Assembly: GCA_046964515.1 (NCBI GenBank)
Contig: JBKUYM010000001.1
Coordinates: 202,124 to 266,123 of the forward strand
Reading direction: 5' to 3'
Source of the DNA: Clostridia bacterium
GTDB taxonomy: Bacteria; Bacillota; Clostridia; TANB77; CAG-508
DNA length: 64,000 nt
Shown here: one piece after another, positions 51,823-55,429 of the stretch
How positions within the stretch are numbered: the stretch's first letter is position 1
Layout of the letters: each line of letters starts with the position of its first letter
The notes under the pieces: generated by a model
Database searches by the model: none
What the model was told of the DNA's origin: nothing
The model's input: only the letters and a program-made list of their open reading frames with translations
Position numbers and translations under genes: made by a program

Positions 51823-52653
51823 TCAATATTTTTCTTTGTATTTAAATAATACAGAAGGTCTATGCCCTTTACCTGTTAACATTTTATCAGTTTTCTCAAC
51901 TTTATTTGCAATAATTCTTCTAAAAGCAGGTGCTAATAATTTTTCTCCTAAAATTACTTCATAAACATCTTGAAGTTCACTTAAAGTAAAATATTTAGGC
52001 ATCATATTGAATACAATATCCGTATAATTCATCTTATTACGTATTCGTTCAATTCCAGTTAAAATAATCTTTGGATGGTCAAAGGCAATACTTTTGTTTT
52101 CTAAAATTAAAAGAGCATATTGGTTAGTCGTTTTTTGTATTATATTTTTTTTAACAGAAAATTTGATTGTTTCATTACTATTATTCAAAGTAATATTTAC
52201 CATATTGCCTATTTCTTTAAATTCAATAATATCAAACCAAGAGGCATTTTTTTTCAGTTTATGGGTTAATCTATTTTTATCAACCAATGCAACATATGCA
52301 GTCGAAACAACACGAGTTCTGGGATCTCTTTTTATATCATCAAAGGTGTATAATTGTTCTAGATAAATATCCGATAAATTAGTTTCTTTTTTTAAAACTC
52401 TTTTTGCACATTCATCTAGAGTTTCATTTTTAGGACTTAAAAATCCTCCAGGCAAACACCATTTATCTTTAAATGGAAAGTCATTTCTCTTAACAAGTAA
52501 AATACTTATCATCTTTTTACTTGTCTTTCTATAATTTATTGACTCTTTATTTGATACACTAACTAATAGTATATCAGATGTCATACTCAATCTATCAAAT
52601 TCTGTCACATCATAATTTTCTAAAAATTCTTTTTCATTATTATACTTTTCCAT
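51823..52653 (-). CDS. NrtR-like regulator (Nudix domain plus C-terminal winged helix)
   Basis: Nudix box LPGGFLSPKNETLDECAKRVLKKETNL. C-terminus FDHPKIILTGIERIRNKMNYTDIVFNMMPKYFTLSELQDVYEVILGEKLLAPAFRRII...GKGHRPSVLFKYK closely follows the NrtR wHTH consensus. Divergent from the rSAM operon. Confidence 0.7.
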   Translation of the reverse strand: MEKYNNEKEFLENYDVTEFDRLSMTSDILLVSVSNKESINYRKTSKKMISILLVKRNDFPFKDKWCLPGGFLSPKNETLDECAKRVLKKETNLSDIYLEQLYTFDDIKRDPRTRVVSTAYVALVDKNRLTHKLKKNASWFDIIEFKEIGNMVNITLNNSNETIKFSVKKNIIQKTTNQYALLILENKSIAFDHPKIILTGIERIRNKMNYTDIVFNMMPKYFTLSELQDVYEVILGEKLLAPAFRRIIANKVEKTDKMLTGKGHRPSVLFKYKEKY

Positions 52654-52751
52654 AACCACTCCTTTTTATCAATTACTTATTAACATTATATTAAAAAGTA
52701 AAAGAATAAGTCAAGTTTAATAAAGTTATTTATTTAATTTTCAAAAAACTC

Positions 52752-52791
52752 TTGACAAATGTATTTGTTTTTAATATATTGTTAATAACAA
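52752..52791 (+). promoter_or_regulatory. Sigma-A type promoter (TTGACA-17-TATATT) with overlapping 13-bp palindrome TTGTTAATAACAA (candidate operator)
   Basis: TTGACA at 52752-52757, 17-nt spacer, TATATT at 52775-52780; palindrome 52779-52791 overlaps the -10/+1; followed by RBS AAGAGGTG and the rSAM start. Confidence 0.45.
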
Positions 52792-52822
52792 AATGTTAAT
52801 ATGTAAAAAAGAGGTGTTGTTT

Positions 52823-53722
52823 ATGAATAGTAAAGAAAAAATAACATTAAAACCATCACAAAATAGTATTTGTGGAAATAGCCATAATTTACTAAATATT
52901 AAATTACTAAATAGCTGTAACGGTAAGTGTGACTTTTGTATTGCAGCTGGAACACCATTTAAGAAATCTGCAAATGCTCAAAAATTTATTGATACTGCTA
53001 TTTCAATGACAAAATTTTCAAAAGTTGACGTTTTAGGTGGAGAACCAACTTTATATCCTAATCTACTACAAGTATTAAAAGGAATTAGACCATACAAAAA
53101 GGATATTGGTATCATAAGCAATGGATCTAATTTAAAAATAATTAAAGAATGTATACCATACTTAGACACTGTAACATTAAGTATTCATTCATTTGATTAT
53201 AATAAAAATTCAACAGGTATATCTATTAATGAAAAAGAACTAAAAGATTTAAACAAAAATAAAGGAAAATCTGAAATTATAGCTGCTGTAGTTGTAACAG
53301 ACAAAACCGTTTCTAATTTAAAGGAAATAGAATCTTATGCTCAAAAAGCTAAAAAGTTAGGTTTTTCAGCAATTAAATTAATGGAATTAGTTACATCAAA
53401 TGAAAATGTAAATTTTATCGATTTACAAGATTTATTAATAAATTTTGGCATTCACCAGAAAAATGCTACATTAAAAGGATGTTTCTTTGAACTACCAGAA
53501 TTATCAAAATATTTAAAAATAAAAACTTATATTAAACTATGTTGTCCATATAATAATGTATTTAAAGCCAAAAATTTTGGAATACCCAATATTGAATATC
53601 AACCCGATTATATGAATGTCATTCAACCTGATTGTTCTGTAACAGATAGTTGGATATATGATTCGTTTGATAATAAAGTTTTGAATGGAGATGATTTAAA
53701 TGTCAATTACCTTAAGAAATAA
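52823..53722 (+). CDS. Radical SAM enzyme, MoaA/viperin-like core without SPASM domain (paralogue 1)
   Basis: CNGKCDFC (CX3CX2C) at residues about 30-37, GGEPTL SAM-binding motif, ISNGS, SxHSFD; four extra C-terminal Cys (GC, CC, DC). About 300 aa. The ORF track starts 30 nt upstream. Confidence 0.8.
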   Translation: MNSKEKITLKPSQNSICGNSHNLLNIKLLNSCNGKCDFCIAAGTPFKKSANAQKFIDTAISMTKFSKVDVLGGEPTLYPNLLQVLKGIRPYKKDIGIISNGSNLKIIKECIPYLDTVTLSIHSFDYNKNSTGISINEKELKDLNKNKGKSEIIAAVVVTDKTVSNLKEIESYAQKAKKLGFSAIKLMELVTSNENVNFIDLQDLLINFGIHQKNATLKGCFFELPELSKYLKIKTYIKLCCPYNNVFKAKNFGIPNIEYQPDYMNVIQPDCSVTDSWIYDSFDNKVLNGDDLNVNYLKK

Positions 53723-54572
53723 AGAAAATTATTGTATGGGAAGAATGGGACCAAGATTATGTATTCAAACGACTACTGCTTGCAATGGTAAATGTTATTT
53801 TTGTGTTGGAAGATTTAATAAGCCTTCTAAAACAAATGTAGATAAAATTATTAAAAATGCTATTGCATTAGATAAATATCCAGATGTTCTCCTATTAGGT
53901 GGAGAATCCACCTTATTTCCAAATGATTTAATTAAAATTATTAATGCTATTGCACCATATAAAAGAAAAATTACTATTAATACGAATGGCTATAATTTAG
54001 AGTGTTTATTACCAGTTATAACAAAACTAGATAAAATAATTGTTTCTGTTATGGGTAATGAAAAAATAAATAGTGATATTGTTGGCGTTACTCCTGAACT
54101 AGATAAAATAAAAGAATTTCATAAGTTAAATCCAAAACTTAAGTTAAGAGTCAATTGTGTTGTTAATAAGAGAGGAATTGATTCTTTTGATAAAATGGAA
54201 GAATTTGCTTTAGGAATGAAAAAATTAGGTTTTACTTCCATAAAGTTTTCAGAAATGTCAACTGATGACCCTAACGATCTAAATTTTATCGATTTGCAAA
54301 AATTGCTAAAACCTTATTGTAACGATGTTCACCAAAAGGATACTTTACAATGTGGATGCTATTTAGAACCAAAATCTCTTGAAAAAAGATTTGGAATAAA
54401 AACTATTTTAAATTTAACATGCCATTTAAAAACTCCAATTAAGCAATCACATTTTCAATCACTAAATTATGAGCCAATGTGTTTTGATAGCATATATATT
54501 TCCCCTGATGGAAGTATTCATAAAAGAATAGTTGCATCGCAAGATATAGCAAATGATCGTGGAGCGTGTTAA
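53700..54572 (+). CDS. Radical SAM enzyme, paralogue 2 of the upstream gene
   Basis: CNGKCYFC, GGESTL, NTNG; shares KKLGF(S/T)xIK...NFIDLQ(D/K)LL block with paralogue 1; four C-terminal Cys (CGC, C, C). 23-nt overlap with the upstream gene; RBS GGAGATGA. Confidence 0.8.
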   Translation: MSITLRNKENYCMGRMGPRLCIQTTTACNGKCYFCVGRFNKPSKTNVDKIIKNAIALDKYPDVLLLGGESTLFPNDLIKIINAIAPYKRKITINTNGYNLECLLPVITKLDKIIVSVMGNEKINSDIVGVTPELDKIKEFHKLNPKLKLRVNCVVNKRGIDSFDKMEEFALGMKKLGFTSIKFSEMSTDDPNDLNFIDLQKLLKPYCNDVHQKDTLQCGCYLEPKSLEKRFGIKTILNLTCHLKTPIKQSHFQSLNYEPMCFDSIYISPDGSIHKRIVASQDIANDRGAC

Positions 54573-54982
54573 AAGGCTTAATATATAAATTAACTCAAAT
54601 CGAATGATTTATAATTGAATTTTCTAAAATTTATCTGTTTCTATGATTCCTCATTTTAAACTAAAACAACCTCTATTTTATCAATATATTCATTATAAGT
54701 TCTACTTGCTCTTTCTTTGTAACTTTAAAATGATTTTTTACAAAAGAAAAAATCAACCACTTCTGATTGATTTTCATATCTATCTGTTCAATTTAGCCCG
54801 AACAGATTCGTTTTTGGTTAGAGTATCCTTATGGAATTTTTTTTAAAGCTGATAAATCAATAATTACACGGCACATTAAAAAGTATATTTACAATATTTT
54901 TTATTAAAAACTGTATGCGAGTAGACTTTTTAACTAATTATTGATATCATTCTATTAATAATTATAAAGGAGAAATGTAATT

Positions 54983-55429
54983 GTGATTAAAATTATCGAA
55001 TATTCAAGCTTATATAAAGAAGAACTTTATGATTTTATCTTCTCTATCATAGTAACTGACGTAAAAAAAGAACCTAATGCTTTAAAAAAGGAATTAATTG
55101 ATTTAGATAATATTGAAGTGTATTATAAAAGTAACTTCTGGCTAGCAATTGATAATGGAAAAATTATTGGCTCAATAGGTCTATTAGTAAAAGATGAAGT
55201 GGGAGAAATTAAAAGGGTATATGTATCTAAGGATTATAGAAGAAAAGGAATAGGCACTTTACTTTATAATAAACTTGAACAAATTTCTAAAAATATGAAA
55301 ATAAAAGAGTTACAGTTAAGCGTGGGAATAAATTTAGAAAATGCACATCATTTTTATGAAAAAATTGGATATACTCGTTACGGTATCTCAGAGAATGGTA
55401 ATTCTTATCGCTATAAAAAAACTATATAA
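54983..55429 (+). CDS. GNAT family N-acetyltransferase
   Basis: GTG start after RBS AAAGGAG; GNAT core IKRVYVSKDYRRKGIGTLLYNKLEQ. Confidence 0.7.
   Translation: MIKIIEYSSLYKEELYDFIFSIIVTDVKKEPNALKKELIDLDNIEVYYKSNFWLAIDNGKIIGSIGLLVKDEVGEIKRVYVSKDYRRKGIGTLLYNKLEQISKNMKIKELQLSVGINLENAHHFYEKIGYTRYGISENGNSYRYKKTI

Follow-up and report, generated by a model that had tools for sequence, protein, structure and literature searches.

The question raised by the locus studied here is why a repressor of the NrtR family should be transcribed divergently from two tandem radical S-adenosylmethionine (SAM) enzymes, and what these enzymes might do under such control. The locus lies in a stretch of 64,000 nucleotides (nt) of a Clostridia bacterium (NCBI GenBank assembly GCA_046964515.1, contig JBKUYM010000001.1, positions 202,124 to 266,123 of the forward strand), which as a whole is called the window and whose numbering is used throughout. 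The conserved unit comprises three genes, namely the repressor gene nrtR (51823-52659, minus strand) and the radical SAM genes rSAM-A (52823-53722) and rSAM-B (53700-54572), both on the plus strand. A preliminary description of this DNA had drawn attention to these genes, and the open reading frames (ORFs), motifs, promoter and palindrome that it reported were all confirmed at their positions by an ORF scan and family searches. It had also regarded the gene combination as undescribed, and this holds in the curated libraries and the literature searched, where neither a description of the enzyme family nor a link between radical SAM enzymes and NrtR was found. About 60 loci, designated here by L numbers, were fetched from three sources. 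The best overall explanation of these data, held tentatively and at a little under an even chance, is a mobile, NrtR-controlled heteromeric pair of radical SAM enzymes that would answer to a signal derived from nicotinamide adenine dinucleotide (NAD) and employ a tail cysteine in radical chemistry.

The regulator is a protein of 278 amino acids (aa) whose N-terminal sensor domain has a Nudix fold and whose C-terminal domain is an NrtR winged helix. Its resemblance to NrtR, already recognized in the preliminary description, was upheld by Pfam, in which both the NUDIX (46.2 bits; cut-off 21.1) and the NrtR_WHD (59.3 bits; cut-off 27) models scored above their cut-offs. The Nudix box, read from the sequence, is degenerate (RVLKKETNL versus the consensus REUXEEXGU), as would be expected of a sensor and not of a hydrolase. 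Its relatives in the PDB are AraR 5bs6, 2fml and the Shewanella NrtR 3gz5, and it shares 70-72% identity with NrtR proteins encoded inside NAD operons. The NCBIfam equivalog for the ADP-ribose-responsive repressor, NF050029, is not reached (149 bits versus a cut-off of 400); since the orthologue encoded in the NAD operon of L066 scores equally low (150 bits), this model does not cover the clostridial NrtR clade to which the regulator belongs.

The promoter of the rSAM operon, TTGACA-17-TATATT (52752-52780, plus strand), matches 11/12 consensus positions and is among the three best sigma-70-like sites of the region. Its –10 hexamer is abutted by a perfect palindrome, TTGTTA-A-TAACAA (52779-52791), and both elements had been correctly noticed before. 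The promoter is followed by TGTTAATAACA, an 11-mer found exactly once in the 64 kb window, the string in the window being TTGACAAATgtatttgtttttaaTATATTGTTAATAACAaaatg. On the opposite strand, nrtR is preceded by TTGACT-18-TATAAT (52675-52714, minus strand; 11/12 matches), and TGTTAATAAGT, which resembles an operator, directly adjoins the –10. Each of the divergent promoters mirrors the other, a 32-nt inverted repeat (52666-52697 versus 52768-52799), 84% complementary, spanning each –10 together with its operator. The same arrangement is found at NAD operons. In L066, a 70%-identical NrtR is encoded in the operon nadD-pnuC-nadR-(134 aa)-(radical SAM)-cinA-nrtR-nadK, which is headed by TTGACA-17-TATAAT followed by GTTAATAACA, with another TGTTAAAAACA upstream, and in L073 a 72%-identical NrtR belongs to a (99 aa)-cinA-nrtR operon headed by TTGACAAATcattatgttattaaTATAATGTTATTAACAaaag. 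Thus, TGTTA(A/T)TAACA abuts the –10 at the nadD operon, at the cinA-nrtR operon and at the rSAM promoter of the window. Because the same promoter and operator head NAD operons holding NrtR proteins of 70-72% identity, this clostridial NrtR clade almost certainly has the palindrome as its operator. Through the promoter and operator that it shares with NAD salvage operons, the rSAM pair would be wired into the NAD regulon.

The best described counterpart is the NrtR regulon (Rodionov et al. 2008, PMC2330246), in which ADP-ribose frees NrtR from DNA in vitro. The module has in common with it the architecture of the regulator, with a Nudix-fold sensor and an NrtR winged helix, the divergon layout with a palindromic operator overlapping the promoter, and an operator and promoter common to nadD, pnuC, nadR, cinA and nadK operons of related Clostridia. 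It differs from that regulon in that two radical SAM enzymes are regulated, no paper in the searched literature mentioning both 'radical SAM' and 'NrtR', and in that a mobile element carries the regulator together with its targets. The same study lists, for other phyla, a divergon 'nrtR <> nrtX-nrtY' whose function it leaves unexplained (PMC2330246). The preliminary description had stated that no NAD gene is adjacent to the pair, and this is true in the window; elsewhere in the family NAD links do occur, with pncB directly upstream on the same strand in L018 and L019, a gene for a 156-aa Nudix protein directly upstream in L022 and L045, and a family member inside the NAD operon of L066.

The association of the three genes was followed across loci, with linkage counted on dereplicated loci. 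Proteins closely related to rSAM-A (46-100% identity, about 100 clusters at 90% identity) are confined to genomes of uncultured gut Clostridia, 'Bacilli' and Ruminococcus, sampled from the guts of human, mouse, rabbit and reindeer, and the distribution of rSAM-B matches. The rSAM-B gene follows rSAM-A in every locus with sequence downstream of rSAM-A, and NrtR is divergent and adjacent in 13/32 dereplicated loci with enough upstream sequence, a frameshifted copy being present in one more. In the NrtR-bearing loci, homology by blastn extends from the nrtR stop (51827) to just past the rSAM-B stop (54572-54607), and the rSAM promoter and operator are kept in every one of them. The flanks are otherwise unrelated, with 266 protein clusters among 432 neighbouring ORFs, and include Mob_Pre relaxases, TnpV, resolvases, a prophage lysis cassette, integrases, toxin-antitoxin genes and tRNA contexts. 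The recurring association of the Nudix-winged-helix regulator with the pair, for which a neighbourhood survey had been proposed, is therefore genuine and moves into unrelated contexts, and on this sequence comparison NrtR, rSAM-A and rSAM-B are a horizontally mobile module. An apparent deep co-divergence of NrtR and rSAM-A in L058 and L062 (45-73% identity) was rejected as an artefact. Across the entire module, the DNA of these loci matches that of the window at about 77-82% identity and is nearly the same as in L024, but their genes are split into several tblastn pieces, pointing to frameshifts.

The same survey bears on the possibility that the link to NrtR is an insertion accident, in which a selfish rSAM pair landed beside a chromosomal NAD regulator and captured its promoter, with no function in NAD or ADP-ribose metabolism. 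More than half of the loci are without NrtR and have unrelated promoters, homology in the NrtR-less loci begins at the rSAM-A start codon (from about 52821-52832 to 54573 by blastn), and NrtR homologues, orthologues included, far outnumber the pair. On the other hand, NrtR and the pair have moved as a unit into many unrelated contexts, and the rSAM promoter and operator are retained in three loci without an adjacent NrtR (L001, L032 and L028), including a clade of 55% identity. Additionally, there are independent NAD links, namely pncB upstream, the Nudix gene upstream and the L066 member in an NrtR-regulated NAD operon. An accident of this kind is accordingly regarded as improbable.

As for the enzymes, the preliminary description of a paralogous tandem radical SAM pair proved accurate, rSAM-A (299 aa) and rSAM-B (290 aa) sharing 34% identity over 274 residues (E 1e-42). 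The rSAM-A start is the ATG at 52823, as in all homologues, and its end overlaps the start of rSAM-B by 23 nt, which suggests translational coupling. Both carry the stated motifs, with the radical SAM core CX3CX2C (C32, C36 and C39 in rSAM-A) found as CNGKCDFC in rSAM-A and CNGKCYFC in rSAM-B, followed by GGEPTL and GGESTL, and by SNG and TNG, respectively. They end in ...NYLKK, which is no cysteine tail, and in ...DRGAC. Both match PF04055 (the generic Radical_SAM model) and no other Pfam model, in agreement with the earlier statement that they are SPASM-less. Their AF2/AlphaFold models are radical SAM barrels, with a predicted local distance difference test (pLDDT) score of 74 for rSAM-A and 85 for rSAM-B. 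The Foldseek neighbours are spread over GDGT-MAS, MoaA, BlsE, viperin, SuiB, SkfB, DesII and EpeE, and a profile search of PDB sequences retrieved YydG, SkfB and viperin-like enzymes at E of about 1e-7.

In the hidden Markov model and structure searches that the preliminary description had proposed, neither protein fell in the viperin, MoaA or twitch families by curated cut-offs, and in NCBIfam all matches were sub-threshold. The core had been likened to the MoaA/viperin branch, and membership could be upheld neither for viperin nor for MoaA. The viperin model NF038283 scores 53 bits with rSAM-A and 41 with rSAM-B versus a cut-off of 180, aligning over model positions 4-126 of 281 and 9-168, and the best MoaA score is 42 bits versus cut-offs of 231-325, with only the N-terminal half aligned. 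Neither enzyme has the C-terminal CX2CX13C motif or the Gly-Gly end of MoaA. The twitch model NF033640 reaches 17 bits versus a cut-off of 170 and the HxsB/HxsC model TIGR03977 25 bits versus 268, and no HxsA His-Xaa-Ser peptide or HxsD was seen among the neighbours of the pair. Tungsten-cofactor maturase, YydG, HxsC and twitch NCBIfam models score far below viperin and MoaA. Viperin, MoaA, the SPASM/twitch maturases and HxsBC were thus rejected as identities, their defining domains and motifs being absent.

What the enzymes are instead was approached with a search of the rSAM-A profile against 1.84 billion cluster representatives, which gave a family of 229 clusters at 50% identity with E <= 1e-10, only 9 of them at E <= 1e-30. 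Across 45 aligned members of diverse sequence (19-55% identical to rSAM-A), the SAM-cluster cysteines, the GG of GGEP, S120, G219 and C241 are invariant, and N15, C17, G18, E74, P75, T99-N100-G101, N129, R153, E188 and C220 are near-invariant. Three extra cysteines are therefore conserved, one about 15 residues before CX3CX2C (C17) and two in the C-terminal third (C220 and C241). This refines the earlier count of four additional C-terminal cysteines in each enzyme, which is right for rSAM-A (C220, C240, C241 and C272) and not for rSAM-B, which has six; family-wide, only C220 and C241 (rSAM-A numbering) are conserved in that region, besides the N-terminal C17. None of the 45 members meets a curated cut-off, the commonest weak match being MoaA (39/45, E down to 1e-20), and PHROGs labels some members simply 'radical SAM domain-containing protein'. 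The hallmarks of the family, as defined here, are N-x-C-G about 15 residues before CX3CX2C, GGEP, an S-x-H-H-Y-D region, G-C, x-C, a core end of the form ...DGxxxxGW, and a tail with cysteine within its last 1-3 residues, in cis or in trans. From these sequence features, rSAM-A and rSAM-B belong to a distinct, uncurated 'Cys-tail' radical SAM family, rSAM-A having its core features without a tail and rSAM-B the tail DRGAC.

The tail is the most distinctive of these features. In rSAM-B of the window, D-R-G-A-C (54555-54569, plus strand) is flexible and ends in cysteine; residues 285-290 have a pLDDT below 50, the sole low-confidence stretch of the model, and the disorder predicted for the tail would suit a flexible arm. 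A (D/E)RG(A/G)C ending is present in 11/17 aligned rSAM-B proteins, namely those of the window clade and of a 54%-identical clade, the other 6/17 being without a tail. Among 77 representatives of the family with a recognizable core end, tails of at least 8 aa are found in 68; 59 of these contain cysteine, 45 with a cysteine in the last three residues, and two or more Cys-His motifs occur in 23. Among the typical endings are ...SSGGC(V/R/C/Q/T/H)Y and ...GCHGGCH...GCH. The rSAM-B genes without a tail are followed by ORFs of 55-57 aa ending in YC. In the clade whose rSAM-A is 52-57% identical to that of the window, for instance, a 57-aa ORF ending in LKDLYC follows, and in the loci examined the tail in cis and the small protein in trans are mutually exclusive. 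A prediction set beforehand, that a small Cys-ended ORF should follow the most divergent tail-less rSAM-B (P0167, in L076), was confirmed by a 55-aa ORF ending in ...KLSKYYC, which has no BLAST similarity to the 57-aa ORFs and shares with them its size, its position and the terminal YC. A homologue of the 57-aa ORF was not found in the window by tblastn or in the small-ORF list. The earlier remark that no precursor peptide is evident therefore stands in so far as no separate peptide accompanies the pair in the window, where rSAM-B carries the conserved Cys tail instead, and it falls short for the family, which has either a Cys-ended tail or a separate small Cys-ended protein.

These endings raise a further alternative, in which the tail, or the small protein of 55-57 or 134 aa, is itself the substrate of a system resembling those of ribosomally synthesized and post-translationally modified peptides (RiPPs) or of protein-derived cofactors. 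In that case, the terminal Cys, Tyr or His would be cross-linked or transformed, for example to a thioether or to a mycofactocin- or 3-thiaglutamate-like product, and the link to NrtR would be a regulatory convenience. Many family tails have repeated GCH motifs or GGC-x-Y ends, YC-ended small ORFs follow tail-less rSAM-B genes, and in L066 a 134-aa ORF ending in ...HYCHYGTISYDTPSYYSSSCGGGSSYRSHC stands ahead of the single, tail-less family member, the classic order of precursor and then maturase. The likeness extends to known RiPP maturases (SkfB, SuiB, EpeE/YydG and mycofactocin MftC/MftA), which are among the best Foldseek and PDB-profile matches and whose precursor peptides the Cys/Tyr-ended small proteins or tails resemble; MftA ends in ...CGVY, and several family tails end in ...GGCVY. 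However, neither SPASM nor leader-recognition (RRE) domains were detected, none of the loci has a protease, transporter or immunity gene alongside the pair, and NCBIfam scores are 17-29 bits versus cut-offs of 265-400. The 'substrate' would also be fused to the enzyme in most family members. In the window, the tail is merely ...DRGAC, with a single cysteine and no aromatic partner, and rSAM-A has no tail, while a cysteine at the extreme C-terminus would equally fit a catalytic tail inserted into an active site. A peptide-modifying system is considered rather unlikely, although modification of the tail is the closest rival of the nucleotide chemistry favoured below.

Regarding the L066 gene itself, the radical SAM protein has 301 aa and is a distant member (26-28% identity) of the family of the window pair. 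It lies with the 134-aa ORF at L066:3889-5198 (the arrangement is also found in L067 and L068), and the C-terminus of that ORF is rich in Cys, Ser, Tyr and Gly (...SYRSHC).

According to the tentatively preferred explanation, a NrtR-controlled heteromeric pair with a catalytic tail cysteine, NrtR would bind TTGTTA-A-TAACAA at both mirror-image promoters and repress its own gene as well as the rSAM operon. A NAD-derived ligand, most likely ADP-ribose, would bind the degenerate, non-catalytic Nudix domain, whereupon NrtR would leave the DNA and the pair would be switched on along with NAD salvage genes during NAD breakdown. The proteins rSAM-A and rSAM-B would act as a heteromer, the triad C17, C220 and C241 would hold an auxiliary Fe-S cluster with an open site, and the tail cysteine would enter an active site, where it might serve as a hydrogen-atom or electron donor for radical chemistry on NAD, ADP-ribose or a nucleotide of the nucleoside triphosphate (NTP) pool, or be itself modified. 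The chemistry that we favour is a radical reaction on a nucleotide of the NAD, ADP-ribose or NTP type with the tail as the donor of a hydrogen atom or electron, a role that would be analogous to the tails of MoaA and ribonucleotide reductase.

Two known systems lend themselves to this analogy. MoaA (GTP 3',8-cyclase) is of similar size and is the best-scoring curated family across the wider family, as noted above (39/45). Its auxiliary cluster has three Cys ligands and an open site, and its C-terminal tail is functionally important, flexible and Gly-rich; the three extra conserved cysteines of the module enzymes could likewise hold an auxiliary cluster. The arrangement of cysteines differs, with one N-terminal Cys plus C-X20-C in the module enzymes versus CX2CX13C in MoaA, and the family tail ends in Cys, whereas that of MoaA ends in Gly-Gly. 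Moreover, the module enzymes are a paralogous pair, and there are no molybdopterin genes near the module. Class I/II ribonucleotide reductases have a flexible extreme C-terminal tail with one or more redox cysteines, and, by analogy only, a Cys tail could deliver reducing equivalents into a radical active site in the same manner. Members of the Cys-tail family also occur between nrdD and nrdG (L076) and among nucleotide-metabolism genes (L010), yet they have no sequence or fold relationship to ribonucleotide reductase.

The surroundings of the pair in other loci touch on nucleotides and phages as well. In L010, the neighbours are HD, dCMP deaminase, NT5C and an AAA_33 kinase. The contig of L076 (1365-6536) is phage-like, with a primase gene downstream; in it an rSAM-A-like gene, an rSAM-B-like gene and the 55-aa ORF with its YYC end separate nrdD, which encodes the anaerobic ribonucleotide reductase, from an nrdG-like activase gene. 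A gene directly upstream of the pair in seven loci (L006-9, L022, L030 and L045) encodes, at L006:5260-5685, a 141-aa protein of two repeats that matches Pfam PF25189, 'Type II Thoeris inhibitor Tad8', with 86 bits; in the chromosome, this gene and the pair are flanked by an Fe-ADH gene and a gene of the Metalloenzyme family (PF01676). The Tad8-like neighbour, which ends in ...RYC, was also examined as a candidate substrate and rejected, as its last residue varies among C, R and A.

An antiviral role with viperin-like logic was suggested in the preliminary description, and the alternative considered here is an inducible anti-phage defence or counter-defence of that kind. NrtR repression would be relieved by ADP-ribose set free by NAD-cleaving immune effectors or in the course of infection, after which the pair would produce a modified nucleotide that blocks replication or neutralizes an immune signal. 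The module is mobile cargo of patchy occurrence, inserted at a hot spot beside tRNA genes, and the sole PADLOC model matched is pVip (64 bits). The Tad8-like Thoeris inhibitor upstream, prophage lysis genes (L009), toxin-antitoxin genes (L071), distant members in phage-like arrays (L069, L075 and L076) and neighbours some of which match PADLOC models point in the same direction. The likeness to viperin and pVip also includes the top NCBIfam and PADLOC matches of rSAM-A (53 and 64 bits), the SPASM-less size of about 300 aa, the mobile and patchy distribution, and in L010 an adjacent AAA_33 kinase, as in kinase-associated pVips. However, the pVip match covers positions 2-110 of 257, the generic N-terminal half, and lies far below the NCBIfam cut-off; with viperin, only the N-terminal 110-125 model positions align. 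Viperin has neither the auxiliary cysteines nor the Cys tail, and the module has two paralogous subunits. Furthermore, no close homologue was found among sequenced phages (50,697 records), in IMG/VR or in plasmids, where only radical SAM genes of 24-34% identity were present, most neighbours are housekeeping genes, and one family member is inside a housekeeping NAD operon (L066). Defence as the purpose of the pair is therefore considered quite unlikely, and roles in defence or counter-defence would be compatible with either chemistry, that on nucleotides or that on peptides.

A bolder version of the preferred explanation combines these elements into an ADP-ribose-triggered, two-subunit radical SAM enzyme with a swinging Cys tail or a 55-aa Cys-ended carrier, which would perform undescribed chemistry and be deployed by mobile elements or phages of gut anaerobes upon NAD destruction. 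It could carry out a reductive or sulfur-inserting modification of NAD, ADP-ribose or NTP, or convert the terminal Cys/Tyr to a new cofactor or small molecule, and its setting could be, for example, a phage-host conflict over NAD. We consider this fuller picture doubtful.

Several observations weigh against the explanation of a NrtR-controlled, nucleotide-acting heteromer in general. The best solved relative of the NrtR domain is the arabinose sensor AraR, so that ADP-ribose is only a presumed ligand. The core of the operator is GT-N5-AC, whereas NrtR sites typically have GT-N7-AC, and this difference, together with the equivalog score of 149 versus 400, separates the module from the described regulon; NrtR motifs are known to differ by lineage around the GT-N7-AC core (PMC2330246). 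The absence of NrtR from more than half of the loci, with other promoters there, makes NrtR control facultative. The A-B heteromer and the auxiliary cluster are inferred solely from gene overlap and conserved cysteines, and the substrate of rSAM-A and rSAM-B is not deducible from their sequences, as the fold searches do not separate nucleotide-acting enzymes (MoaA, viperin and BlsE) from peptide-acting ones (SkfB, SuiB and EpeE). In addition, rSAM-A protein P0080 (L010:6001-6900) lacks the first cluster cysteine and has Arg instead (NERNGKCDFC), its rSAM-B being intact, so that the A subunit may be catalytically inactive in the L010 lineage. Finally, the neighbourhoods are highly variable, and the NAD and nucleotide theme could partly reflect selective attention. 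The L010 locus that encodes P0080 is itself phage-like.

If the preferred explanation is true, radical SAM enzymes would join the NrtR regulon of NAD and ADP-ribose, and a NAD-homeostasis regulator with its operator would be carried together with accessory cargo on mobile elements of gut Clostridia. The compact, uncurated family (about 229 clusters at 50% identity) follows a testable rule, a Cys-ended tail in cis or a small protein in trans, which offers a concrete handle for enzymologists. Because members recur among phage nucleotide-metabolism genes and beside a Thoeris-inhibitor-like gene, the product of the pair could matter where phages and bacteria compete for NAD and nucleotides. Should the chemistry turn out to be ordinary, the gain would be limited to an improved annotation of genes labelled 'radical SAM protein' in metagenome-assembled genomes from the gut, the Cys-tail family being small and confined to uncultured organisms.

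The position of the module in its chromosome was examined by comparison with L001, which is syntenic, its flanking proteins being 77-90% identical to those of the window. Relative to L001, the segment 51746-55518 is an insertion that holds the module, a mobile-element remnant and a GNAT gene; window positions 51001-51745 and 55519-55871 align to L001 just 73 nt apart (blastn). The insertion is bounded by a gene for an aminotransferase-GNAT fusion on one side and by a tRNA-Arg/tRNA-Pro pair on the other, and it has a guanine-cytosine (GC) content of 0.25 versus about 0.30 in the flanks, which bears out the impression that the content is foreign to its surroundings. The tRNA pair (55519-55799; ARAGORN and Rfam), in which tRNA-Arg(ACG) is encoded on the minus and tRNA-Pro(UGG) on the plus strand, is a conserved landmark of the chromosome, next to which the cassette has been inserted in different versions. 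In fact, L001 holds its own version of the rSAM pair, 55% identical and inverted, on the opposite side of the same tRNAs. From this insertion and the inverted cassette of L001, it follows that the locus is a tRNA-adjacent hot spot and the module mobile cargo, as read from the aligned sequences. The Rfam search yielded no riboswitch or other RNA element, solely the two tRNAs being matched.

Traces of the vehicle may persist on both sides of the module. A conserved flank just past the nrtR stop (51771-51827) has 84-89% identity in L016, L022, L041, L043, L044, L045, L048, L056 and L063-65, and its position relative to the module varies among loci. Because it recurs in module loci, several of them with Mob_Pre, TnpV or resolvase genes (L048 and L063-65), it is probably the remnant of a mobilizable element. 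A second conserved non-coding remnant (54711-54818) has 74-86% identity in L016, L022, L041, L043, L048, L056 and L063-65, with Mob_Pre fragments near its counterparts in L016 and L022 and Mob_Pre/TnpV in L048 and L063-65.

Genes near the module had been drawn into the proposed pathway, and several of them can be set aside. The GNAT gene (54983-55429) had been counted in the cassette. A stretch of 410 nt that includes a mobile-element remnant separates it from the upstream rSAM-B, and tblastn detected no copy beside the pair in any of about 50 other loci; in view of this distance and lack of linkage, it is ruled out as a member of the pathway. The suggestion of an aminosugar or aminocyclitol dehydrogenation step had leaned on the nearby aminotransferase, and it is without basis because the aminotransferase-GNAT fusion is a conserved chromosomal flank rather than a pathway partner. 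The GNAT gene, the aminotransferase gene, the tRNAs and the sigma/anti-sigma genes all lie outside the module. The fusion (49648-51687, plus strand; 679 aa) combines a class I/II aminotransferase with a C-terminal GNAT domain, is about 80% identical in L001, where it adjoins a VanW/G5 protein, and has its best NCBIfam match, a weak one, to GntC-like cyclodehydratase/aminotransferases.

On the far side of the tRNA pair, a gene for an extracytoplasmic function (ECF)-type sigma factor of 146 aa, apparently with a short region 4, and a gene for a DUF4179-like anti-sigma protein (55881-57454, minus strand) lie between the tRNAs and conserved genes for a 127-aa protein, a DAO-Rieske protein and HtrA. 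This sigma/anti-sigma pair occupies the position at which L001 has its rSAM cassette, so both sides of the tRNA pair are variable. Beyond HtrA, L001 (1-4246, minus strand; also L002, L003 and L031) has an adjoining nonribosomal peptide synthetase-like gene of more than 1400 aa with condensation, AMP-binding, PP-binding and reductase domains, whose counterpart would fall at or beyond the right end of the window. Elsewhere in the window, positions 29000-32000 have a GC content of 0.21-0.23 versus about 0.30 and several minus-strand ORFs, and may be another foreign segment, and a very long ORF of 1694 aa is found on the minus strand at 4476-9560.

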